A stretch of 39,216 nucleotides of DNA from a virus. Lineage: Duplodnaviria > Caudoviricetes. A program made the translations under genes and the position numbers. The notes under the pieces are model-generated. The model ran no database searches and had not been told where the DNA came from. It was given only the letters and a program-made list of their open reading frames with translations. Positions 6,352-28,461 of the stretch are shown in pieces. Each line of letters opens with the position of its first letter. The first letter of the stretch is position 1. The stretch lies in IMG/VR virus record IMGVR_UViG_3300032212_000062, positions 1 to 39,216 of that record; one strand, given 5' to 3'.

Positions 6352-7881
6352 ATGGAAGAATTAGGATTTTGGGATAGTCAATTTAAATATAAAAGAGATC
6401 AATATGCTGCAGCTAAGACTCGTGAGAGTCTAGGTTCTGAAGGATATGCAGATGCTAGTTTCAGAAGTGCTGAATTTGATGAAAATGGCAATGAGATAAA
6501 TGTTCGCACCAATAATGATACTGGGGCTTATGGTCTGCTAGCAGACAAGAACATTAATCCTAGTCGTATGCGCTTTGCTGCTGACCAAATGGAAGTTGGC
6601 AACACTTCTTTGGCCAATAACATTATAGCACAAGAAACAGGCAATGCACTTAATATTGATAATAGCAATAGAGATCAAGAAATCTTGAAAAAGAATGCTG
6701 CTGATATTACTAATATGATTATGGGACAACGTCCTTCATCAACTCCACAACAGCCTCGTTTCCCACAAATGGCTGGTGTACAACCTCAGCCGGTTCAAGC
6801 GGTTAATAATAGCGCGAATCCTACTCCCTTACCAAATCTCCCACAGTATAACGGGTTTAATCCTCCCGCTAATACTAACGGTAGCCCTCAGCCTATATCG
6901 CCTCTTAGAACGGCTCCTATTAAGCCAAATGATCCTATGATATCTACTCTTCCAACTGGTTATAACTTCCAGCCAGAGATGGATAGGAAGTCACAGGAAA
7001 GAAGTATAAATGCAAAATATCGTCAAGTTGCTTTAATGCCTGGTGCTAATCCTGCTGTTGTTGAAAATATGCGTAAGGCAGAGATAGATGCTCTATATGG
7101 CTCAAACAACACCAACCTTTATCGTACTTGGAAAGATGCACAAGCTGATGGATACAAAGGCTCTTTAGAAGAATGGAAGAAAGCTGGCAACAAGATAATG
7201 ACTGGTGATGGAACTGTTAAGATGCTTAGTCCTGAGCAGAAGACACAAATGGGTCTACTTGGTGCAAATGGACAACCTACTGATCAGCCTTTGTATGTTA
7301 CTTCTAAAGGTGATATCAAAGCTGCTCCTGTTAAGCCTGTTGATACATCAGAGCGTACATCTGAAGCATATTCTGCAATGATGGGTAATCTTACTCCTGA
7401 ACTTCAGGTACTTGCTCCAGTAACTGGATATGATATGGACTTGTTACGTCAAGAAGCATCTGAGATGCTTAATTGGTTACCTATGAATTTATCCAATGCT
7501 GTTAACTCTGGCAAAGGCCAGAAGCGGGAAGCTGCTCAGAATGCTTGGTTAAATGCTAATGGTCGTGACGAGTCTGGCGCCACCATCAAAGATGAAGAGA
7601 TGGACAAGTATCGTTCATACTACTTCACTAGATTAGGTGACAAGCCTGAGACAATTGCATTCAAAGCAACGCTACGCAAACAAGCAGTTGAAGGCATGAG
7701 AATGAAAGCAGGTAAGGCTTCTGGTTCTGCTGGCAATGCTATTGATCCATTAATTTCTGAATATAAGCTAATTGCTTCATCTAATAAGATTGTATATGAG
7801 AATCACGATGATAAATATATATATGGTCGAAACAAAGGTGGGCAATTAACTAGAGTGCCTATTCCAGCAGGAGATAAATAA
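6352..7881 (+). CDS. Internal virion / ejection protein 2
   Basis: AGGAG RBS; 509 aa with a P/Q/N-rich linker and an R.ESGATI..EE....YF...GD..ETI..K motif. Confidence 0.6.
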   Translation: MEELGFWDSQFKYKRDQYAAAKTRESLGSEGYADASFRSAEFDENGNEINVRTNNDTGAYGLLADKNINPSRMRFAADQMEVGNTSLANNIIAQETGNALNIDNSNRDQEILKKNAADITNMIMGQRPSSTPQQPRFPQMAGVQPQPVQAVNNSANPTPLPNLPQYNGFNPPANTNGSPQPISPLRTAPIKPNDPMISTLPTGYNFQPEMDRKSQERSINAKYRQVALMPGANPAVVENMRKAEIDALYGSNNTNLYRTWKDAQADGYKGSLEEWKKAGNKIMTGDGTVKMLSPEQKTQMGLLGANGQPTDQPLYVTSKGDIKAAPVKPVDTSERTSEAYSAMMGNLTPELQVLAPVTGYDMDLLRQEASEMLNWLPMNLSNAVNSGKGQKREAAQNAWLNANGRDESGATIKDEEMDKYRSYYFTRLGDKPETIAFKATLRKQAVEGMRMKAGKASGSAGNAIDPLISEYKLIASSNKIVYENHDDKYIYGRNKGGQLTRVPIPAGDK

Positions 7882-9779
7882 TGGCTGAAGTATATGATGA
7901 AGAAACCGGCAAGTGGATACCTGATGGAGATGCTCCTGCTCCTTTAGGTACTATCACTACAGGTGATACTAGACGTATTATTATGCCTAATGATTCAGGC
8001 AATGTCAAAGTTGGTGGCAATGTTATGAATAACATAAGAGGTTATATTGAGCCATATTTGCCAAAGTCTGAACCTAAGCCACCTACAGATAATTATGTAG
8101 ATAACTTCAGACAGAAGACTGCAGAGAATATGTCTTTTCCCGCTGCTATGGGCACAGGCATTATCAGTGAGCTTAAAGGTGTTGGCCAAGGACTCACTGA
8201 CCCTTTGCTTAATAGCATTGACTATGCAGCGGGCAATCCTGTAAATGTAGAAGATCGCAAGAAGTCACGTGCTCATGATAAGTCATATAATGACAGAGTG
8301 CAAAGTGAAAATCCTATTGCTTTTGGTGCAGGAGAAATAGCTCCTTGGATGATGATACCACAAGGTACATTTTCAAAGCCTATTGCTGCTGGTGTAAAAA
8401 CACTTACTGGCAATCCCATTTCAAAGAAAGCATCTAGACTATTATTTGATTCTGGTGAGAAGATACTTGCAAAGGATGGATTGAATAAATGGGCTTATAA
8501 AGGTGGTGATATACTTAAGTCACTAGGCGTTGGAGCTCAGAAAATACCAAGTGCTATTAGAAACAACTCTTTTGTTGATAATGTTGCAATGGGTGGTGTA
8601 GCTTCTTTTGCTCGTCCTGATCAAGATATAACAGAAGGTATGACAACTGCTGCATATGGAGACATGATATTCCGTGGTGGTGGCAAGTTGTTATCTAAAG
8701 CCAAAAGCTCACTTAATAAATTTGATCAGGGAGTTGTTGATTGGGCAGAGCGGAAACGATTCAAACTTATGCCTGGTGCTAAAACAGGGAATAAATATCT
8801 TCAACAGAAAGACCAAGCTCTTAGGACAAATCAAAATACTGCTGGTGGTTTTGATGCTTGGGATAAGCATAATACTGTTCAAGCTAATGGCATAATGTCT
8901 AAGTTGATAGGTGAGAAAACTACTGCTGATCTTGGTCCTGACTATATGGCTAGACAATATACTCGTATCGGTTCACGTATGGATGAATTAGCAAAAGGAA
9001 CAAAGCCAAGATTGACAAAAGAAACTTATACTGATCTTGAAGGTATTAAACAATCTTTTAATGATGTCTACAAAGAAGATAGCAAAGTGCTTAATGGATA
9101 TGTTAATGATATTGTAAATGCAATTGATGTAGATGGGAATATGACTGGTGAACGTTATCAGGAAATAACATCTAATCTAAATACATATGTATCAAATGGC
9201 TTAAAGACTAATGCTCCTGATGCTAGATTTGCTATGAAGATTAAAGGTGTTCTTGATGATATGGTTGAAGATGGAATGGGTGCCAATAAGTTGAAAGGTT
9301 GGAAGACTGCTAGACGCCAATACCGTATGCTCAACCTTGCACAAGACAATGCATTGGATGCTGGTAATGTTAGTCCTACTAAATTGTTCAATTATCTTAA
9401 CTCTAAAGAAAGGAAAATGTTTACTGGTGGAGCTAGAGAAAAACTTGATCCAGATATGAAAGATTTGCATAGTCTTGCAGATTATGGCAGGTTGTTACAA
9501 AAACAAGATGGATCATCACTTGGTGCTTCTGAGACTATCTCAAGAGTATTCAAGAACCCAGCTGCCGCTGCTATGGGCAGTTTCAATACTATGGTTAATC
9601 CATATACTCGTAATATTGGTCCACTTGATCAGGCTTTGATAAGCTTGTACAGAAGCGGATTTACTGCAACTCCACATATTCTACCAACTAGCTTCCCTAG
9701 ATTTGCTGCTAAGGCTGGGGCTGCTAATGCAGTATCTGGAGACAGAGGTGAGGAATATATACAGGAAGGAGATCAATAA
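7881..9779 (+). CDS. Internal virion / ejection protein 3
   Basis: 632 aa, A/G-rich and helical; last gene of the + strand operon. Confidence 0.6.
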   Translation: MAEVYDEETGKWIPDGDAPAPLGTITTGDTRRIIMPNDSGNVKVGGNVMNNIRGYIEPYLPKSEPKPPTDNYVDNFRQKTAENMSFPAAMGTGIISELKGVGQGLTDPLLNSIDYAAGNPVNVEDRKKSRAHDKSYNDRVQSENPIAFGAGEIAPWMMIPQGTFSKPIAAGVKTLTGNPISKKASRLLFDSGEKILAKDGLNKWAYKGGDILKSLGVGAQKIPSAIRNNSFVDNVAMGGVASFARPDQDITEGMTTAAYGDMIFRGGGKLLSKAKSSLNKFDQGVVDWAERKRFKLMPGAKTGNKYLQQKDQALRTNQNTAGGFDAWDKHNTVQANGIMSKLIGEKTTADLGPDYMARQYTRIGSRMDELAKGTKPRLTKETYTDLEGIKQSFNDVYKEDSKVLNGYVNDIVNAIDVDGNMTGERYQEITSNLNTYVSNGLKTNAPDARFAMKIKGVLDDMVEDGMGANKLKGWKTARRQYRMLNLAQDNALDAGNVSPTKLFNYLNSKERKMFTGGAREKLDPDMKDLHSLADYGRLLQKQDGSSLGASETISRVFKNPAAAAMGSFNTMVNPYTRNIGPLDQALISLYRSGFTATPHILPTSFPRFAAKAGAANAVSGDRGEEYIQEGDQ

Positions 9780-9806
9780 AATGAATGGAGGGCTTTCACC
9801 CCCATT
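9775..9806 (-). terminator. Intrinsic terminator between convergent operons
   Basis: Minus strand reads AAUGGGGGU-GAAA-GCCCUCCAUU followed by CAUUUUUA, directly after the ligase stop. Confidence 0.6.
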
Positions 9807-9809
9807 ATT

Positions 9810-10865
9810 CTAAATCTCATCTCCTAATAGTAATGTTGCTACAGGATGGAAAGGAATTCCATCTGTGGTTAATTGGGCATACTCCACTCTAACTGAAGTT
9901 CCCAAATACTTTGCCTTATTCTCCATAACATAATGCTTATTGGCAACTGGGCCTGGACAGGTCACCCTGAACCTTGCCCCATTATTTGCTAGACATACCA
10001 ATATTGCCCAGCCATCTTTAGATGGAACAATATCAACTATAACAAAGTTATCATCTTCCCAAGATTTAACCTTAATCAAACTCTTTGATCTTTTGCCGTC
10101 CTCATATCCATTATTGTGTAGTCTAACAATAGAGCCTTCATACCCAAGCTCACGACTTTCTTTAAAGTGAGCCTGTACTTCTTCAAATGATTGCACCTCT
10201 ATTGTTTCTGCTATCTCCATTGCAGGAGTAAGCGGAATCATATTTAACATTGCATATCTACGAGAATATGGAACATCAGCTATCATATCATACATGTGAT
10301 ATTTAATTTTAAGCGTATCTGCCTGACCTCTTTTTATCCATGATACTATTGTTTGAAGAGGATGTCCATGACAGTAAAGTTCTCCATCAATAGTTTGTCC
10401 TTCTAGTAATTCAAGACCATCAAGGATGTGCCCAATAGTATTGATTGGTTTACCATTTCTTGTATATGCAATGATTGTTCCTTGTTGGCAAGTAATAAGG
10501 CATCTATTGCCGTCATATTTCCGTTGTACATATGCCCCTTTATAATCAACTCCTTTGCAATTTTTAAGTGGAGCTGCGAGCATTGGTTTTGCATATCCAA
10601 GTATGTTGGTAGCTTTGCCTGTTGGTAGTTCTGGTCTATATCCTTTGTCCCTTTGCTTAGAAATGCGAGAAGCGATTCGTGACATAATTTGCTCCTCTCT
10701 TGTTCTAGTTGCTTTCCCTTCTTCAACTTCTTCTGTGACTCGTAGCATTGCTCCATCTTTCTCTCCATGTTCTATGACAATAACATAATCTTCAACGCTA
10801 ATAGCCCATTCACGTATCTTGCCACTATTATCTTGCATAAACATTCTTGTTGGATTAGTGTTCAT
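9810..10865 (-). CDS. lig: ATP-dependent DNA ligase with an N-terminal WGR-like domain
   Basis: KPMLA, motif I QRKYDGNR, YTRNGK, IDGELY, GYEGSIVR, KRS..LIKVK and a C-terminal OB domain (GIPFHPV). Start ATG 10865 preferred over 10961. Confidence 0.92.
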   Translation of the reverse strand: MNTNPTRMFMQDNSGKIREWAISVEDYVIVIEHGEKDGAMLRVTEEVEEGKATRTREEQIMSRIASRISKQRDKGYRPELPTGKATNILGYAKPMLAAPLKNCKGVDYKGAYVQRKYDGNRCLITCQQGTIIAYTRNGKPINTIGHILDGLELLEGQTIDGELYCHGHPLQTIVSWIKRGQADTLKIKYHMYDMIADVPYSRRYAMLNMIPLTPAMEIAETIEVQSFEEVQAHFKESRELGYEGSIVRLHNNGYEDGKRSKSLIKVKSWEDDNFVIVDIVPSKDGWAILVCLANNGARFRVTCPGPVANKHYVMENKAKYLGTSVRVEYAQLTTDGIPFHPVATLLLGDEI

Positions 10866-10947
10866 CTTCTTCATCCTCTGATTCTTCTTTCTTTTCCCAG
10901 AATAATTCTTCTTCACGATCTTCATCTGTCCAGCTAGGATTTTGCAT
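10855..10947 (-). CDS. 30-aa highly acidic peptide (not in the ORF track)
   Basis: MQNPSWTDEDREEELFWEKKEESEDEEDEH*. Preceded by GGGAGAAAGAGA; overlaps the dnaE stop and the ligase start. Confidence 0.6.
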   Translation of the reverse strand: MQNPSWTDEDREEELFWEKKEESEDEEDEH

Positions 10948-13795
10948 TCTCTTTCTCCCAATCAGTTAAATTAAGTATTTGATCAATTTCTAACTTGCGC
11001 CAGTCACCTCTCATTCTTCCTTTAATTAAGAACCATGTTTCACCTTCTTTTGATGTCTCAACTATCCGCTGGCCTTCCATCTCCTCAAAGACGTAGCGGT
11101 TGATAACACACAGTATCTGATCAGTATCATCCTCAATCAGTAAGCGGAGATATACAGAGTTCTCATCATACACAACCCCATTACGCTTAACAACTTCATT
11201 GTAATCATTTAGATCACGAAGGTCACGCATAATTAGCTTACCTATGACTGTATACAATCCAGGTTGATCAATTGCCTTAATCTCAGAAGGTGCTTCAGAT
11301 AAGCCATATGTAATAGGGTCATTATAGAATTTACCCCAATAGTGCTGAGTTGGGAATAGTATATCAAATGGAGTTACTGGATACATTAGCTTCTTGAATA
11401 ATCCAGGTGGCAATACTTTTCTACTCTTGCGAGCATTCATAATCTGCTTAGCCTTAGCTTCACCTATGCCATCTATGTTCATAAGACCACCAACTAACCG
11501 GCCATCTTGGATTGACCATTCCATCTCTGATAGGTCTGCATCTACAGGGTCATACTCAAAGCCTTCATTAACTACAAGATCACGGAGCAGCTTAATAGCG
11601 GAATCTGTATCTCTTGCATTGTTAAGATTAGCTATGGCAAACTCCATAGGATGGTGAGCCTTCATGAAGCCAGTCCAATAAGAGATAAGACCATAGGCTA
11701 CAGCATGAGATTTATTGAATCCCCATGAACCAAATGTAACCATATTTTCCCATACAGCAATAGCCTCTTCATCTGGCACTTTTCTAAGTCTTGTCCCTTT
11801 CAGAAAGTTGTCTCTGTATCTATTGAAGAACTCTTCACCAAGAGACTTGGATGCAGCCCTTCGCAGATCAGATACATCTTCCCAAGATAGGCCACCAAAC
11901 TCACGACCTATATACATCAGCTGCTCTTGGTAGATAATAATGCCAAGAGTCTCTTCAGTGTGCTTGATGTAGATAGGATCATTTGAAATATACTCAACCT
12001 CAGAAGCACCTGTTCTTCTTTTAACGAATGAGTTCGCTCCACCACTATGCATAGGGCCAGGCCTAGCAAGCGCAGTAATAGCGACAATGTCATCAAAATT
12101 ATGAATTCCCATTTGGTTTGTAAGGTACTGTAGAGCTTGTCCTTCAAATTGGAAAATGCCATTATATCTCCCTGAATTGAATATATTAAATGTTTCCTGA
12201 TCTTCAAGAGGAAGTCTATACAAGTCATTGTAGTTCATACCAATTTGACTCATAGTCTCCTCAAGGATAGTCAGTGTTCTTAATCCTAAGCAATCTATCT
12301 TAAGCAAGTTTAGATACTCTGCATCTTTCTTGTTGAGCATAACTACATCATCTCTACTATTTGTAGAGGCATAGTTTGTCAGCGGTAAAGTAGATACTAG
12401 TATTCCAGCTGCGTGCTTGCCGGCATGGGAGGCATGATTTTCAATCCTACTTACCAAACGCATAGCAGGGTATTTAGCAATGAACTCTTTGCCAATATCA
12501 GTACTGTCAAAAGTATCGGCAATACACATAGCAGCACGAGCGTCACCACCAGACCTTTCGACAATCGCGTTTTTGAGTTCTTCCGTTTCATACTTAGGGA
12601 TTGATAGACCCATAGCGAAATCACCAATAGCAGACTTAGGCTTAAGACGAGAAACATTAGCGAGACATCGTACATTTTTGTGTCCATATTTATGAGATAG
12701 ATATTTAACAACCTTTGCTCTTTTCTTATCAGGGAAGTCAATATCAATATCTGGAAGGTCATGTCGGTTGATGTCAATGAAACGTTCAAAAAGCAAACCG
12801 AATTTAATTGGATCAATTTCTGTGATGCCCATAAGGTAACATACTAGACTTCCCGCTGATGAGCCACGTGATGGCCCAACTAGCATAGACTGTTTAGCAT
12901 ACCTTATCATATCTGCAACTATGAGAAAATAATCATTGTACCCTTTTTGCTCAATGAGTCCAATTTCATATTCATAACGATCTTTGTAGATAGGGTCATC
13001 AAGATCAACATCTAAATGAATAGCCCCTCTCATACAAGCTCTTGTTACAGTTTCTGGCCCTGTGTACTTTACAAGTTCTGCCATCTCTAATTCTGCATTA
13101 CATATCTCAGCAATAGAGTAGGTAGAAGCTATGGCATAGTCTGGGTCTCCTGTCTCTGCAGTGAACTCAGAATCAGTCAGCCGGTGAAGCGGATAAGTTG
13201 CATCTTCAAAGTTATAGCTATAGCCAGTGCCATTCTTTCTAGCTCCTGCAAGTAGTTGATACACTTCTTTATCTTCTACATTTGGGTATCTGGCTATGTC
13301 TATCGCTACTGTAGGTTTATTAGGGATATTTAAGCCCTTATTATCTACGCTAATGCTGCTATAATCTATTCTCTCAAGAGTTTTTCTTAATTCTATAGTA
13401 GTATAAGGGGCTATTACTAAAACGTTCTTAGAAGTCCTTAGAAAGCGTGTAATATCTACCCTTGGGAAGTAGTAAAAATTGTCCCAAGCGTATGTAGTAA
13501 GTTCATTGATCTCCTTGAGACCTTTATTGTTTTTGGCTAAGAAGATCATCTCAACTCGACCATTAGAAGATTGATTAGCAGACCTTGCTTTCTCAACCAT
13601 GTCACACACCGTAAGGCGTACACCAAAGATAGGCTTGACACCTTTCTTAATGCACTCTCTGGCAAACGATACGTGTCCTAGTGTAGTGTTAACATCTGCT
13701 ATACCCATAGCCTCATAGTCCTCCTTGACTATTTCAGATATGTGACCAAAGCAGCTTTTAAAACTAAACTCAGTTTTTGTAGCTAGATAGATCAA
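10934..13795 (-). CDS. dnaE: DNA polymerase III alpha subunit (family C)
   Basis: GPSRGSSAGSLV, LLFERF, PDIDIDF, HAAG, LLKIDCLGL, GIFQFE, IIYQEQ and FNKSHA motifs. Probable TTG start at 13795 after GAGGAAGG. Confidence 0.96.
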   Translation of the reverse strand: MIYLATKTEFSFKSCFGHISEIVKEDYEAMGIADVNTTLGHVSFARECIKKGVKPIFGVRLTVCDMVEKARSANQSSNGRVEMIFLAKNNKGLKEINELTTYAWDNFYYFPRVDITRFLRTSKNVLVIAPYTTIELRKTLERIDYSSISVDNKGLNIPNKPTVAIDIARYPNVEDKEVYQLLAGARKNGTGYSYNFEDATYPLHRLTDSEFTAETGDPDYAIASTYSIAEICNAELEMAELVKYTGPETVTRACMRGAIHLDVDLDDPIYKDRYEYEIGLIEQKGYNDYFLIVADMIRYAKQSMLVGPSRGSSAGSLVCYLMGITEIDPIKFGLLFERFIDINRHDLPDIDIDFPDKKRAKVVKYLSHKYGHKNVRCLANVSRLKPKSAIGDFAMGLSIPKYETEELKNAIVERSGGDARAAMCIADTFDSTDIGKEFIAKYPAMRLVSRIENHASHAGKHAAGILVSTLPLTNYASTNSRDDVVMLNKKDAEYLNLLKIDCLGLRTLTILEETMSQIGMNYNDLYRLPLEDQETFNIFNSGRYNGIFQFEGQALQYLTNQMGIHNFDDIVAITALARPGPMHSGGANSFVKRRTGASEVEYISNDPIYIKHTEETLGIIIYQEQLMYIGREFGGLSWEDVSDLRRAASKSLGEEFFNRYRDNFLKGTRLRKVPDEEAIAVWENMVTFGSWGFNKSHAVAYGLISYWTGFMKAHHPMEFAIANLNNARDTDSAIKLLRDLVVNEGFEYDPVDADLSEMEWSIQDGRLVGGLMNIDGIGEAKAKQIMNARKSRKVLPPGLFKKLMYPVTPFDILFPTQHYWGKFYNDPITYGLSEAPSEIKAIDQPGLYTVIGKLIMRDLRDLNDYNEVVKRNGVVYDENSVYLRLLIEDDTDQILCVINRYVFEEMEGQRIVETSKEGETWFLIKGRMRGDWRKLEIDQILNLTDWEKENAKS

Positions 13796-14339
13796 TGTGG
13801 CCTTCCTCAACTAACCAATGGAAACATCTTACCAAAGCATGTACATCAGCTTTAGCTCTGTGAGCACCTTCAAAAGGCTTACCAGTTGCTAACTCATGCA
13901 ACTTAGCAAGATTCAAACGATTTCCTTTGATGTGATTAGACTTCTCAACAGTACATATGTGATTAACCGGCCATGGAAAATGAATGACCTTATCTATCCG
14001 TACTAACTCATTTGCTAACATAGATACATCAAAGCTAGCATTGTGAGCAACTAAGCAATCTGAGCCTTTAAACACTTCAGCGATCTGCTTGTACATAGCG
14101 GAAAATTTAGGTGCATCCTTAACCATATCATCATTGATGCCAGTAATCTTAGTTATCACATCAGAGATAGGCAAAGTAGGATTCAAGAATGTATCAATCT
14201 CTTTTATGATCTCAAACTTCTCATTGATCTGAACTGCATATAGCTCAATGATCTCTGGTTGCTGAGCTACGTTAGTAGCATTAGGGCGCAACAACCCTGT
14301 AGTCTCTGTATCATATACAGTCATTAATAATTCAGACAT
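13770..14339 (-). CDS. dnaQ: DnaQ/epsilon-like DEDDh 3'-5' exonuclease
   Basis: ExoI YDTETTGL, ExoII AHNASFD, ExoIII HRAKADV; directly upstream of dnaE. Confidence 0.92.
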   Translation of the reverse strand: MSELLMTVYDTETTGLLRPNATNVAQQPEIIELYAVQINEKFEIIKEIDTFLNPTLPISDVITKITGINDDMVKDAPKFSAMYKQIAEVFKGSDCLVAHNASFDVSMLANELVRIDKVIHFPWPVNHICTVEKSNHIKGNRLNLAKLHELATGKPFEGAHRAKADVHALVRCFHWLVEEGHIDLSSYKN

Positions 14340-14715
14340 TATTCTTTCCTTCATTAGCCCAATCACGATCATCAAACTCATCACCGTAACGTTTCATATG
14401 CTCAATGATTGCTGCAGCATTAAACATAATGTTAGCCATATGATTCTGCTTAATCTCAGGGTCATTGTTTTCGCAGTTATGGAAAGCAGTTAAGTGACGA
14501 AGAAGGCTATTCTCCATCTCAGTAATTGGCATACCATTCTTCCAATTATTCCGCTCATACTTCTCTGCACCAGCTTCCATGACTCTTGTCCAAGCTTCTA
14601 TAGCTGCAGGGAAGTCAAGCATATAAGATAGTTTTGGCTTATCTTCATTCTTACGCATCATTGGAGATTTCTTAGCTGTCTTCTTTTTTGCTACTTTCTT
14701 TTTACGTGGTGCCAT
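14332..14715 (-). CDS. dATP/dGTP diphosphohydrolase domain protein (DUF5664-like)
   Basis: KP.L......A......VM..GA.KY...NW..G......SL.RHL......E..DPE....H.A....N pattern. Confidence 0.82.
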   Translation of the reverse strand: MAPRKKKVAKKKTAKKSPMMRKNEDKPKLSYMLDFPAAIEAWTRVMEAGAEKYERNNWKNGMPITEMENSLLRHLTAFHNCENNDPEIKQNHMANIMFNAAAIIEHMKRYGDEFDDRDWANEGKNNV

Positions 14716-15224
14716 TATACTTTCCTCAATTGAGTTACTAATGCAAGATTACGTTCAGCAATCCCCATGATAACATTTAGGTGAACTTCAAACATCCAAT
14801 CTACCCCATTACAATTCTTGTCATAGTATGGGTTGTTGAATAGTGTTTTCCAAGTATCTTCTGTGAAGAAGGACTTGTGATCCAAATCTTGAAATGCCAT
14901 GTTAGATGTATAGTAAGGAACTACTATGCTTATGTGTCCACCTGGTCTTAGTACACGTTGGCATTCGGATAGAACAAAGCGTGGATCAGATAGATGCTCA
15001 AGGAAATGATATGCATGTATCTGAGATACTGATTCATCTTCACATGGGATGGCATCTGACTCAGCATCCCACTCAGGGAACTCAAGCGGACGAGCACCAT
15101 AGATTTGCTTATTGCCAGGCCCAAGGTTCAACACTTTATGACTCTCTGGATCATAATCATATAGTGCTTCTGGAATAGCTCTATCCATTCCAAGAGTGAA
15201 AATCTCTGCTAAACATTTAGACAT
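14715..15224 (-). CDS. Class I SAM-dependent methyltransferase (Methyltransf_11-like)
   Basis: VLNLGPG motif I, IP..DESV..I.A.HFLEHL, RVLRPGG...I.VP and D..H motifs. Start 15224 follows AGGAG and overlaps the upstream stop. Confidence 0.85.
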   Translation of the reverse strand: MSKCLAEIFTLGMDRAIPEALYDYDPESHKVLNLGPGNKQIYGARPLEFPEWDAESDAIPCEDESVSQIHAYHFLEHLSDPRFVLSECQRVLRPGGHISIVVPYYTSNMAFQDLDHKSFFTEDTWKTLFNNPYYDKNCNGVDWMFEVHLNVIMGIAERNLALVTQLRKV

Positions 15225-15661
15225 TAGTAGTCTCCTTTTTTGACTTGAAAAGTAGTTATGCCTTTTTCTCTCCACATATCTACTACTTGTGAACGATCTT
15301 CAAATGCATAGTGAACATCATGCCCAGACTCTAGTAGCAGATTAAGCATTTCTTCTTTTACTACATAATCACTTCTAAAGTCTTTGGCAGCCCTCATCAG
15401 AAGAACTGAACATGGTATCTCATGCTCATTCAGCCAGTCCATAGTCTTCTGCTCTATTCTGCAAGACCGGCCTGTACACATCACTATGTGGTATCCTGCG
15501 TCTCGCATTACATGAGTCATCTCTATGATTCTATGATAAGGTGCATCCTTATCACAATCATCATTAAAAGCATCCCAGTCCTTATCATCTTTCTGAATAT
15601 GATGAAGTCTATGGGATATGTCGGCTAGTGTTCCATCTATATCAAATATTGCAGTTTTCAT
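15224..15661 (-). CDS. HAD-family phosphatase (T4 PNK 3'-phosphatase-like, no kinase domain)
   Basis: IFDIDGTLAD motif I, CTGR motif II, LLMR...D.R.D..VK and FEDR..VV.MWR motif IV. Confidence 0.9.
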   Translation of the reverse strand: MKTAIFDIDGTLADISHRLHHIQKDDKDWDAFNDDCDKDAPYHRIIEMTHVMRDAGYHIVMCTGRSCRIEQKTMDWLNEHEIPCSVLLMRAAKDFRSDYVVKEEMLNLLLESGHDVHYAFEDRSQVVDMWREKGITTFQVKKGDY

Positions 15662-16533
15662 TATAATGGTATCCCATCTTCGAATCTTGAACAAATTTTC
15701 ATTTCATCAGACGTGAGATAATGAGGGCACTCATCAGTTCTAAAGTGATCACATTGCCAACAATGATTTTCTGAAGCCATAGACATGCCATCTTTAGCAA
15801 TAGGATTAGCTACATGAGTAGTCTCTTCAATAGCCTTGCGACAGTTTGCTTTAGACTCCATAAGAGTGGTTGGCAGCAATCTGTTTATAGTATGCTCTTG
15901 AATAGGACATTCTTCATATCTTGGGAAAGCACAGGTGCCATACCAGCTACAGTGTACTTGGATAAACTCCTCTGCCCATGGGTGCTGTCCAATAACCAGT
16001 CTCTTAATTTCTCTGAAGACATCTTGATACACACCGGCTGTTCGTGTACATAATCGTACAAGTGCCATATTATGAAGTGTGCGTAAGTCGAACTTAGCAA
16101 TGATAGAAGTATGAGTTCCCGTTGGTAAGATTTCCCTTGCCTCCTGCACTGGGATGTCCTCATCGACCATTGAGGCGTATGCTTCGAATATGTGATCTCT
16201 GAGGCCATCGAAGTGTCCATTTGTCTCCGGCCAATCACACCCGTGTCCCCTGACATCAACTGTTCTCTGAGACTCTTGAGCATAGCTACCTGTTCTTGTT
16301 CGAACAAGTTGGTGTGTAAACGAGCGTGGAACTTCTGATATCTTGAACGTGTATTCAACGAACTCAAATGAGCTTTGAATCGTGTCCAGCATATATTCAA
16401 AATGTTCTTTCTTTTTCTCATCAGGCCACTCCTTTATATCCTGTAGTGATTGAGCACCCTGTAAGCGGGTATTCTTGGTAAATAGCAACAGCTCCAAGGC
16501 ATCTTGGGTGCAACTTAGCAGTTCTACTTTCAT
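15661..16533 (-). CDS. thyX: Flavin-dependent thymidylate synthase homologue with atypical motifs
   Basis: YTF.I..V.R.FTHQLVRTRTGSYAQESQR, AR.ILP and LR.L......RLC motifs. The canonical RHR is RTR here. Confidence 0.85.
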   Translation of the reverse strand: MKVELLSCTQDALELLLFTKNTRLQGAQSLQDIKEWPDEKKKEHFEYMLDTIQSSFEFVEYTFKISEVPRSFTHQLVRTRTGSYAQESQRTVDVRGHGCDWPETNGHFDGLRDHIFEAYASMVDEDIPVQEAREILPTGTHTSIIAKFDLRTLHNMALVRLCTRTAGVYQDVFREIKRLVIGQHPWAEEFIQVHCSWYGTCAFPRYEECPIQEHTINRLLPTTLMESKANCRKAIEETTHVANPIAKDGMSMASENHCWQCDHFRTDECPHYLTSDEMKICSRFEDGIPL

Positions 16534-16534
16534 G

Positions 16535-17416
16535 TTATAGTCCTATCTTGTTTCTGTTATATCCAGTTGTATAGATCAACTCTTTAATCTTATACAAATC
16601 TTTTAAAACATCATCCATAAGTACATTCTTCCATATGGCAAATCTTCCTGCGCTATATACATCATGAGTAGTTGTCAACTCATAAAGGAGTCTATGACGC
16701 TCTGTCTCATCTATGTTCTTTATCTTACCATAATCTTGTACAGTAGACTCTATTATTTTAGATGGATAATCTACTCCAAATGAATGAACTACATATTCAA
16801 GATCAGCTAGTATAACAGGAGCAGTACTTTCAATGATTAGATCATCTCCAGTTATTGTAGCTCTATATACACAACAATCATCATCAGGATAATATAGAGT
16901 TTGATACACATTGCACTTAGGCACTTTGTATCTTCCTGTAAATATCTTTTGGAATGTAAATTCCGCTGATGTCTCTATGCCAGCTGACCGTAGAGTATTT
17001 GTTATAGGGATTGTACTGATTACAGTCTCTGCTGGGATATAATCTAAGCGTTGGCCTAGATGTATTCTACTCTTGACAAGATTCACTAATCTTTCTTGGA
17101 AGTTAGCAGGAGCAATATAGCGCTCAACTGAATCTAAATTCCATATTGATCTATCAGCTGTATGGCCTAATACTTTTTTGCTATACATATTAGCTAACAT
17201 GATATTTGGTTGGAGGTATTCACCTCTGACATAAATGCCTTTTCTTACTGTTACTTTCTTAAATGGGATGCCAGTAACTTTGCTGACAGAGTCATCACGA
17301 AAGCGGAGAACTGCATTGTGATTGATTGGTAGTATATCATTTGCTTCAAAGATATGTGCTTCAGGGAATATCAAACTAGCTAAACAGCCGGTCATTCCTG
17401 CGCCTATTATTAACAT
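16535..17416 (-). CDS. FAD-binding flavoprotein (UDP-galactopyranose mutase / protoporphyrinogen oxidase-like fold)
   Basis: N-terminal IIGAGMTG dinucleotide-binding motif with downstream IFEA, plus ISTIP and SAGRFAIWK...MD motifs. Confidence 0.75.
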   Translation of the reverse strand: MLIIGAGMTGCLASLIFPEAHIFEANDILPINHNAVLRFRDDSVSKVTGIPFKKVTVRKGIYVRGEYLQPNIMLANMYSKKVLGHTADRSIWNLDSVERYIAPANFQERLVNLVKSRIHLGQRLDYIPAETVISTIPITNTLRSAGIETSAEFTFQKIFTGRYKVPKCNVYQTLYYPDDDCCVYRATITGDDLIIESTAPVILADLEYVVHSFGVDYPSKIIESTVQDYGKIKNIDETERHRLLYELTTTHDVYSAGRFAIWKNVLMDDVLKDLYKIKELIYTTGYNRNKIGL

Positions 17417-17490: not shown

Positions 17491-18099
17491 CTAGCTGTTA
17501 GCGATATCTGCACATAAAGCTGCAAGACCCTGATAGTGAGAAGCATGACGCTTAGTGTTATCAGTACCGTTAGCTTCAATCCAGCCAGCAACATCTTCTT
17601 TCGATACAGGAGAATTTGCACGTAAGTAATCATGGAATGCGCTAGTGATACCAGAGCGACCTGCACCAGTGCCTTTAGGCTTCTTGAATACTTCAAGTTC
17701 ATTCTTCTTAGCATACTGGCGAATAGAGCCAGCAGCAGACTTGTCATTAACACCTTTCAAATTGTCTGTTAGTGCTTCAACTGCAGCAGCAAAGCCTTCT
17801 TCAGTTGATAAATCCATACCAGAAAGAGTATCGTTTACAATTTCAGCTTTTTCAGTTTTAGAGTTTGCATAACCACCAGATACCATACAGGCATTGAAGA
17901 TAGTTTTAACATTCTTGAACGTTGCACCAGCAGCAATCATATCAAGCATGATTTCATCTTCAGACTTGTCTTCTGACATAGCTTCATCAAAAGCTACTTC
18001 AATTGGAGTAGGCTCATCATCTTCAACTGTATCATCTACTTCTTCTGTTTGGTCAACTACTTCTTCATCTTCAAAAACTGCATTTTCTTGATCAGACAT
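17491..18099 (-). CDS. Hypothetical protein with an acidic N-terminus; paralogue of 28090-28461
   Basis: Strong AAAGGAG RBS, own upstream AT-rich promoter region, C-terminal G..NTKRH.S.YQ motif shared with 28090-28461. Confidence 0.85.
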   Translation of the reverse strand: MSDQENAVFEDEEVVDQTEEVDDTVEDDEPTPIEVAFDEAMSEDKSEDEIMLDMIAAGATFKNVKTIFNACMVSGGYANSKTEKAEIVNDTLSGMDLSTEEGFAAAVEALTDNLKGVNDKSAAGSIRQYAKKNELEVFKKPKGTGAGRSGITSAFHDYLRANSPVSKEDVAGWIEANGTDNTKRHASHYQGLAALCADIANS

Positions 18100-28089: not shown

Positions 28090-28461
28090 TTATTGCTTAG
28101 CAGCCCAGATAGCATTAGTCAATAGAGCCTCATTCTGGTAGATAGATTCATGACGCTTGGTATTTGCCGAGCCATGCTCCTCAATGAAGCTGCCAACCTC
28201 AGCGGGAGTCTTGGTACCTTCTAATAGGAAGGCATGGAACATAGCGGTAAACCCAACCCGCTTTACAGCTTGGCCAGTCTCCTTAAGATATAAAGAGAAT
28301 ACAGAACCCGCTTTGTTAAAGCTCAGCTGGTGCTTACTAACCAGACCAACCTTAATTAGATCCACCTCAACCCCATTTGCTAAAGATGACTCTATATAGT
28401 CAAAGATAGGTGCTGGGATAGTAGATTGAGAAACCTTATTTGCTTTAGTAGATTTAGACAT
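28090..28461 (-). CDS. Hypothetical protein (123 aa), stand-alone gene; paralogue of 17491-18099
   Basis: AGGAAG RBS; upstream TTTACT-16-TATATT (28544-28517); shares the R.G.T..FH..L...IE..G..NTKRH.S.YQ motif. Confidence 0.8.
   Translation of the reverse strand: MSKSTKANKVSQSTIPAPIFDYIESSLANGVEVDLIKVGLVSKHQLSFNKAGSVFSLYLKETGQAVKRVGFTAMFHAFLLEGTKTPAEVGSFIEEHGSANTKRHESIYQNEALLTNAIWAAKQ

Follow-up and report, generated by a model that had tools for sequence, protein, structure and literature searches.

A flavoprotein/ThyX-like gene cassette in a 39.2 kb phage genome as a candidate source of sugar-modified thymine

The closest measured counterparts of the genes described here are found in the Pbunaviruses F8 and 14-1. 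The available text of PMC12191111 reports that their DNA carries thymidine derivatives of 362 u (F8) and 390 u (14-1), with about a quarter of T replaced; the masses were measured on a triple quadrupole, which we take as unit resolution. The same text infers a TG context for the modified T of F8 from ten restriction enzymes, and reads the F8 base as a tetritol derivative and that of 14-1 as a cyclic aldopentose or pentoside, the responsible genes being unnamed in the part available. Pbunaviruses, described as phages in common therapeutic use, are according to that text made vulnerable to END nucleases by their modified thymine, which likely also explains their poor native nanopore reads (10.64898/2026.07.08.737226). 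Here we analyse a run of minus-strand genes at positions 9810-17416 of the viral record IMGVR_UViG_3300032212_000062, a complete 39.2 kb (39,216 nt), podovirus-like phage genome with direct terminal repeats, referred to below as the window. At the centre of this run are a flavoprotein gene and a gene for a protein resembling the thymidylate synthase ThyX.

A second group of described systems comprises SP-15, YerA41 and Carin-5. The SP-15 base is given in the accessible part of PMC5977210 as C5-dihydroxypentyl-uracil, made prior to DNA synthesis, with modified bases never adjacent. Linkers of T+88 in Carin-5 and T+104 in YerA41 are described in the accessible parts of PMC12686479 and PMC13697223; the F8 base corresponds to T+120.

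The genes of the window run are as follows.

16535..17416, minus strand: flavoprotein with the UDP-galactopyranose mutase (UGM) fold; phrog_4828, without a Pfam match; cassette core; likely to form a flavin-N5 adduct that activates a sugar at C1
15661..16533, minus strand: ThyX-like protein with a rewired ThyX fold; Thy1, PF02511; about 250 residues plus a Cys-rich tail; likely to alkylate dUMP at C5
15224..15661, minus strand: HAD phosphatase; PF25109, E 3e-34; would strip a side-chain or nucleotide phosphate
14715..15224, minus strand: small class I S-adenosylmethionine (SAM) methyltransferase; Methyltransf_11 PF08241/phrog_6636; 169 residues; optional tailoring, likely O-methylation of the sugar-alcohol chain
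14332..14715, minus strand: PF18909 dATP/dGTP (nucleotide) diphosphohydrolase; E 1e-24
13770..14339, minus strand: DnaQ-like proofreading exonuclease; PF00929, TIGR00573 above cut-off
10934..13795, minus strand: DnaE (Pol III alpha-like) polymerase; PF07733/PF17657/PF02811 (PHP); likely TTG start at 13795
9810..10865, minus strand: ATP-dependent DNA ligase; PF01068; same operon, outside the conserved cassette

An earlier, sequence-only reading of this DNA had described these genes as one run, and this is upheld: all of the named open reading frames (ORFs) are on the minus strand with stops and starts that abut or overlap, including TAATG overlaps at three junctions (15661, 15224 and 14715). 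Overlaps and ribosome-binding sites together indicate likely starts at 17416, 16533, 15661, 15224, 14715, 14339, 13795 and 10865. The order flavoprotein, rewired ThyX, HAD, nucleotide diphosphohydrolase-type gene, DnaQ, DnaE is that of the Pbunavirus-type cassette.

On the basis of folds, residue changes, gene linkage, a gene-content difference and mass arithmetic, we put at about one in two the probability that this cassette would alkylate dUMP reductively at C5, an activated pentose being the donor, to give 5-(tetrahydroxypentyl)-deoxyuridine (362 u), followed by phosphate trimming, methylation and partial incorporation. That the cassette has some role in nucleotide modification is highly probable, and a sugar-modified T as its product is probable; the product would likely replace part of the thymine as an anti-restriction shield. 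The modified-pyrimidine role proposed in the sequence-only reading is thereby supported, the base likely being uracil or thymine. Its description of the modification as undescribed stands for the genes and falls for the base, since partial thymine substitution is an already known kind of modification and the base itself has been described for relatives. A search of the openly accessible literature found no paper that assigns the cassette genes to a modification, and the accessible parts of PMC13326640, PMC13390438 and PMC11990801 contain nothing on the cassette. What is new here is the link between the methyltransferase and the mass gap between 14-1 and F8, together with the presence of an SP-15-type ThyX and a PF05014 protein in the same operon of sister phages.

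Both F8 and 14-1 have homologues of the flavoprotein (37% identical to that of the window), the ThyX-like protein (36-38%), HAD, DnaQ and DnaE. The similar gene set that the sequence-only reading placed in PB1-like phages is thus confirmed; a search of 50,697 phage records finds the flavoprotein in 362, and Pseudomonas phages account for 292 of these. The partial substitution it had envisaged likewise agrees with the quarter of T replaced in these relatives (PMC12191111, available text), and T in TG makes up 0.27-0.28 of T in the F8 and 14-1 genomes and 0.24 in the window. Between F8 and 14-1 the flavoproteins are 97% and the ThyX-like proteins 94% identical, and 88 of the 90 annotated 14-1 genes match F8. 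The two exceptions are gp88, a known anti-END protein, and gp13, a member of the methyltransferase family that is 44% identical to the window enzyme, for which no match exists anywhere in the F8 genome. In the reverse test, which covered 40 of F8's 91 genes and left out structural and most replication genes, four small genes were found in F8 only. Thymidine bearing a C-linked tetritol has the same formula as tetrahydroxypentyl-deoxyuridine (362), and the difference between 390 and 362 fits two methyl groups, giving 390.164 (C16H26N2O9) compared with 390.127 (C15H22N2O10) for the pentoside of the original authors. By this arithmetic the methyltransferase would explain the 28-u gap between the two bases. 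The window differs from F8 and 14-1 in that its genes are contiguous within a 39 kb podovirus-like genome, the methyltransferase lies inside the cassette and PF18909 replaces a fused DUF6378 domain. The F8 and 14-1 base was measured in virion DNA; the window phage is uncultured.

What might a ThyX fold contribute to such a product? The window protein has the Thy1 fold (PF02511, 93.6 bits; Foldseek match to ThyX, E 4.5e-12), and it scores under the TIGR02170 equivalog cut-off (67.9 against 87.9 bits). Compared with T. maritima ThyX, it retains Q75, R78, R80, S88, R90, R133 and R160, whereas H53 (presumably part of the folate pocket), R74, H79, E86 and Y91 of that enzyme have become I52, H74, T79, Q86 and T91. 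Across the family the dUMP-binding residues, which in ThyX are Q75, R78, S88, R90, R147 and R174, are kept (Q75 in 117 and S88 in 116 of 119 sequences; R78, R90, R133 and R160 in all 119). The canonical motif RHRx7S with Tyr91 and His53 is replaced by RTRx7S, T91 and I52, and none of the 119 sequences has Tyr or His at the latter positions. The protein thus shares with ThyX (TM0449; PMC8316439, accessible part) the fold, the RxR...SxR motif and the dUMP-binding arginines, and differs in the five substitutions and in being almost always paired with the flavoprotein. In ThyX, according to the accessible part of PMC8316439, dUMP attacks, through its C5, a flavin N5-carbinolamine, for which free formaldehyde can serve as source, and the flavin then reduces the resulting alkene; the mutation Y91A slows carbinolamine use more than 100-fold. 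The residue changes would fit an enzyme that keeps uracil as substrate and takes a donor other than methylene-folate. The Cys-rich C-terminal tail (15661-15777) aligns beyond the end of 14-1 gp60 into the downstream small gene gp59, which suggests a fusion.

A simpler role would be plain dTMP supply, in which a divergent normal thymidylate synthase and housekeeping phosphatases lie beside the polymerase and the DNA is unmodified. The ThyX-like gene is indeed the window's sole gene with a thymidylate synthase fold, ThyA (PF00303) not being found in the genome; the equivalents of S88, R90 and R174 are retained, and annotators label the gene thymidylate synthase. We nevertheless consider this very improbable. 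Tyr91 is substituted in 119 of 119 family members, a position at which Y91A carries the penalty just cited; the protein is under the thyX cut-off; dTMP synthesis needs neither a sugar-mutase-like partner nor methyl-, carbamoyl- and sulfotransferases; and relatives carry modified T.

The partner flavoprotein gives no Pfam (including GLF) or NCBIfam match and, at 293 residues, is well short of a full-length UGM. Its predicted structure (pLDDT 94.9) nevertheless has the flavin adenine dinucleotide (FAD)-binding UGM fold, with eukaryotic UGMs as best matches both in Foldseek, where a covalent FAD-galactopyranose entry is among them, and in VIA (Z 20.8, root-mean-square deviation 3.2-3.4, about 281 residues aligned). 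An alignment of 120 sequences has 22 invariant columns. Among the invariant residues, Y175, R185 and R258 align with Tyr317, Arg327 and Arg447 of A. fumigatus UGM in a weak profile match (E 0.28) that allows a three-residue chain offset; H33 is also invariant, its equivalence to UGM His63 being suggested by position alone. UGMs of the A. fumigatus and T. cruzi type differ in being 465-510 residues long and only 16-19% identical. These enzymes use flavin N5 to displace a diphosphate leaving group, and the UGM fold of the flavoprotein therefore makes it likely that the appendage is a sugar. The flavoprotein family comprises 1,206 clusters or representatives at 50% identity, and outside viruses was seen in just 10 short contigs of metagenome-assembled genomes (185,579 genomes searched).

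Gene linkage provides further support. The gene-neighbourhood survey that had been suggested with the sequence-only reading, counted here over the best 80 of 566 viral stretches encoding the flavoprotein, places the ThyX-like gene downstream of it in 78 of the 80 loci, with DnaQ in 59 and DnaE in 57; many of the other loci end early. The clustering of the cassette genes is not due to chance. HAD and a DUF6378 protein, often fused, come after the ThyX-like gene in related loci; HAD is represented by 66 sequences in the clustered neighbourhoods and by direct blastp in 44 of the 80 loci. The PF18909 protein has no blastp match in the 80 loci, and a 61% match in the window's nearest relative (L150 in our numbering of loci); relatives fill its slot with DUF6378 or DUF3310 proteins, 41 DUF6378 sequences being found at that position. 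The ligase, which the sequence-only reading had included in the set, turns out to be lineage-specific (3 of 80 loci).

The gene content between ThyX and DnaQ varies. Complete intervals number 58, from 57 viral loci and the Vibrio phage VA-RY-3, which is syntenic with the window genome and has the same core, with a sulfotransferase where the window has its methyltransferase. An SDR is present in 31 of the 58, in 28 of these together with a VOC-fold protein, and a methyl- or carbamoyltransferase in 10, with no overlap between these and the SDR (Fisher p 1.6e-4, not corrected for relatedness). Other genes in this slot encode sulfotransferases, a pyruvyltransferase-like protein and dCTP deaminase, or pair an FkbM methyltransferase with a radical SAM enzyme. 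We interpret the slot as holding swappable tailoring enzymes, most of which would act on hydroxyl groups. Individual loci add further variety: in L064 (13371-15145) and L067 the FkbM methyltransferase and a radical SAM/SPASM enzyme sit between SDR and VOC, and in L081 (14177-16570) and L099 (6424-8204) the slot has unassigned transferase-like ORFs, a pyruvyltransferase-like gene and dCTP deaminase. Genes resembling PF03013 pyrimidine dimer glycosylases turn up repeatedly within the cassette or next to it (one such cluster in 15 of 81 loci; L039:11841-12347, L030:7458-7949, L090:12013-12600), possibly reflecting base editing or repair tied to the modification.

The window methyltransferase fits this picture of optional tailoring. 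It is a 169-residue Methyltransf_11-type protein with neither a [DNSH]PP[YFW] nor a PCQ/PCP motif, which separates it from the N6, N4 and C5 DNA methyltransferases and agrees with the small-molecule type assigned in the sequence-only reading. It is found in 7 of the 80 related loci, always in the ThyX–DnaE interval. The family occurs in 138 phage records, of which 58 are Pseudomonas, 45 Gordonia and 26 Mycobacterium phages; the cassette context of these records was checked in 14-1, KandZ and Madi. The last two, a cluster D mycobacteriophage and a Gordonia phage (Terapinvirus), have a methyltransferase of this family and DnaE, as well as a ThyX in which the motif is altered as in the window and a small GxGxxG oxidoreductase, the latter differing in that it resembles the window flavoprotein weakly (hhalign 49.7%). 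These distant cassette versions (L089:10588-18848 in KandZ, L090:9797-19225 in Madi) are candidates for unreported DNA modification; no published DNA chemistry was found for KandZ, Madi or VA-RY-3.

Further loci were collected, 11 through the window's DnaE and 2 through its helicase. The nearest relative among them, L150, has a DnaE 81% identical to that of the window and keeps the methyltransferase and PF18909, yet carries a distant flavoprotein/ThyX pair (ThyX 29% identical; flavoprotein hhalign 97.5%). The dedicated polymerase of the sequence-only reading therefore applies loosely at best. In L150 (6794-9473) and L158 (6749-9445) this second subfamily appears to have been swapped in as a pair into otherwise close relatives, the serine of its aligned ThyX motif (IQSMR/IQSLR) standing one alignment column before its place in the window. 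L159, a complete genome, has neither ThyX type in the stretch fetched, and its cassette slot before DUF6378-DnaQ-DnaE is taken by a 362-residue ORF without a known family (7847-8932).

In two further relatives, L104 and L155, the occupants of the cassette slot are an HD hydrolase, a ThyX of another type and a PF05014 protein. This ThyX is of the SP-15 gp130 type, and the three-gene block of HD hydrolase, gp130-type ThyX and PF05014 deoxyribosyltransferase recurs in DnaE-encoding phages (L104:8946-12174, L155:5323-9375, L164-L172); such blocks are minimal candidates for dihydroxypentyl-uracil-type synthesis. The nine viral loci with gp130-type ThyX are about eight distinct ones, since two look identical, and they include L104 and L155. 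In all nine, PF05014 adjoins the ThyX in the same DnaE/ligase operon, and in seven DUF6378 is present with SDR/VOC or a sulfotransferase, the remaining two ending early. The flavoprotein is missing from all nine, and the gp130-type ThyX/PF05014 pair from every one of the 80 flavoprotein loci; neither gp130-type ThyX nor PF05014 is found among the window proteins. In the 50,697 records the gp130-type ThyX matches just six, from YerA41, GN1, phiXF1, SP-15 (twice) and Carin-5. PF05014 is encoded by SP-15, YerA41, Carin-5 and phiXF1 (all four tested) and absent from 14-1; the flavoprotein is absent from the same four records.

PF05014 enzymes and UGMs alike break a bond at sugar C1, and either could therefore load a pentose, the expected mass being 346 with deoxyribose and 362 with ribose. 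Direct orthology of the window protein to SP-15 gp130 was rejected, as the two belong to separate subfamilies and SP-15, YerA41, Carin-5 and phiXF1 lack the flavoprotein. Also rejected was the suggestion that YerA41 has 346 and not 330 for want of an SDR, as it has three SDRs. As far as the available parts of PMC5977210, PMC12686479 and PMC13697223 describe them, SP-15, YerA41 and Carin-5 share with the window a divergent ThyX fold, partial T replacement and a C5 polyol chain (predicted for the window), and their ThyX type with PF05014 occupies the same operon in the window's sister phages. They differ in the ThyX subfamily, in having PF05014 and not the flavoprotein, and in a family A polymerase, uracil-DNA glycosylase and large glycosyltransferase clusters that are not in the window.

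A test of 6-bp palindromes covered seven dinucleotides. Avoidance is weaker for palindromes that contain TG than for the rest in 50 of 53 cassette loci of at least 12 kb, compared with 13 of 20 controls, partly fragmentary loci in which no flavoprotein was detected (p 2.7e-5, uncorrected); the median difference is 0.25 for cassette loci and 0.06 for controls. TT scored equal to TG in the window, several podovirus-type cassette relatives have no TG effect, and 4-bp palindromes gave none in four whole genomes. The palindrome signal supports a family-wide reading and says little about the window phage. CpG is strongly depleted in the window (0.42 overall; 0.20 across codon positions 2-3, 0.34 across 3-1), alongside a TG/CA excess of 1.26, and no C5 DNA methyltransferase was recognised in it; L053 is more extreme still (0.14). 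As a sign of the methyltransferase this depletion was rejected, for methyltransferase-bearing loci span 0.42-1.46 and low values mostly track low G+C.

The cassette could alter nucleotides while the Pbunavirus base is made by other genes, with the match between methyltransferase and +28 u coincidental and the window cassette making a different base. The proteins are just 36-38% identical to those of F8 and 14-1, one phage pair is one data point, subfamilies are swapped in near relatives (L150, L158), and many Pbunavirus genes have no annotation. The cassette, on the other hand, consists of the nucleotide-chemistry genes common to the window genome, F8 and 14-1, the TG palindrome signal extends across the family, and members of the methyltransferase family come mainly from phage groups that have the window's ThyX type (129 of 138 Pseudomonas, Gordonia, Mycobacterium). 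We judge such a coincidence distinctly unlikely.

A mechanism for pentose alkylation can be outlined. The UGM-fold flavoprotein would activate C1 of a pentose, drawn from phosphoribosyl pyrophosphate or a nucleotide-linked ribose, as a flavin-N5 adduct, which the rewired ThyX would take in place of the formaldehyde-flavin carbinolamine. Attack by dUMP C5, elimination of the flavin and hydride reduction of the alkene would then give deoxyuridine 228 + pentose + 2H - H2O = 362.13. HAD and the diphosphohydrolase may trim phosphates, provide dUMP, or both. The methyltransferase, to judge from gene content, would add methyl groups, two of them in 14-1 (390.16). In the least certain step, host kinases would convert the product to the triphosphate, and DnaE with DnaQ would retain the base in some contexts only, such as TG; this context selection is conjecture.

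An O-linked and partly post-replicative route must be set beside this one. The ThyX-like protein would make 5-hydroxymethyl-dUMP or a similar handle, the flavoprotein would supply or transfer a sugar, and attachment would take place on DNA at TG. The masses 362 and 390 are also those of a 5-hydroxymethyl-deoxyuridine (hmdU) tetritol ether and an hmdU-pentoside, the latter being the authors' reading, and the TG context suits such a route (both from the available text of PMC12191111). A small handle, moreover, requires no special kinase. Yet no glycosyltransferase or 5-hmdU kinase was recognised in the complete 39 kb genome, loss of the presumed folate-pocket His53 speaks against a one-carbon donor, and the methyltransferase, the sole unassigned 14-1-specific enzyme, is left unexplained. 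Nor does the available text of PMC12191111 report residual hmdU for F8 or 14-1. We regard this route as unlikely, though less so than a coincidental match.

Several points weigh against pentose alkylation of dUMP. No deoxynucleoside monophosphate kinase was found in the complete window genome (PF02223, the thymidylate kinase family; Pfam; PHROGs), so that the triphosphate step is left without a phage enzyme, and the strict TG context in F8 (PMC12191111, available text) suits a post-replicative step better; on both counts the pre-replicative route of the sequence-only reading is not borne out. The authors' tandem mass spectrometry reading of the 14-1 base, in the same available text, is a cyclic aldopentose. 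The HAD-DUF6378 fusions of F8 and 14-1 share only 79% identity and may account for part of the mass difference, and the Pbunavirus methyltransferase lies about 40 kb away from the cassette. The UGM fold is common to protoporphyrinogen and amine oxidases too (Z 18.5 and 16.5). The TG palindrome signal of the window itself is weak (0.85 against 0.76) and within the control range. KandZ has a methyltransferase and an SDR together, as do L064 and L067 with the FkbM type; strict exclusion of the two, which holds in the 58 intervals, was accordingly rejected. The SP-15-type ThyX is distant from the profile of the window's ThyX-like family (E 2.5e-6 to 0.95), and the SP-15 link is therefore one of genomic slot and not of orthology.

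Taken more broadly, and tentatively, phages may have turned ThyX into a sugar C-alkyltransferase that joins a flavin-bound pentose reductively to C5 of dUMP; we rate this somewhat below the pentose alkylation proposed for the window. The pentose would be loaded by a mini sugar-mutase in the window, the Pbunaviruses and probably the cluster D mycobacteriophages, or by a deoxyribosyltransferase in SP-15, YerA41 and Carin-5. One chemistry would then yield the 330/346/362 u series, to be diversified by methyl-, carbamoyl-, sulfo- and redox enzymes (390 u being the dimethyl form). If true, this would solve the biosynthesis of the SP-15 dihydroxypentyl-uracil, a question dating from the 1970s, and would identify which genes modify the DNA of phages in wide therapeutic use. 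For the window, in which compactness reduces the field to five neighbouring genes, the proposed mechanism, if it holds, would represent new flavin enzymology, a sugar–nucleobase C-C bond formed by ThyX, and tie it to the old SP-15 problem.

Other features of the genome can be stated briefly. As the sequence-only reading had noted, no PurZ, Que/Dpd or glycosyltransferase gene was recognised among the 48 ORFs (PHROGs) or the Pfam-scanned subsets, several ORFs being without assignment, nor was a ThyA-type hydroxymethylase, which sets the window apart from the Z-base, 7-deazaguanine and glucosyl-hmC pathways. The acidic peptide it listed is a 30-codon ORF (10855-10947) in another frame that overlaps both neighbours, and its status as a gene is unsupported. 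No tRNA was found in the window, and promoter and terminator scans yielded chance-level results (31 against 37.8; 7 against 6.1). No RNA data set was listed as containing the sequence, and the single DNA data set listed may be the source sample. A hairpin at 9784-9806, between the convergent virion-gene and replication operons, is a likely terminator. Finally, an acidic 202-residue gene upstream of the cassette (17491-18099) is conserved in the window's podovirus-like lineage; it and a 123-residue ORF (28090-28461) match one and the same L150 protein and may be paralogues.

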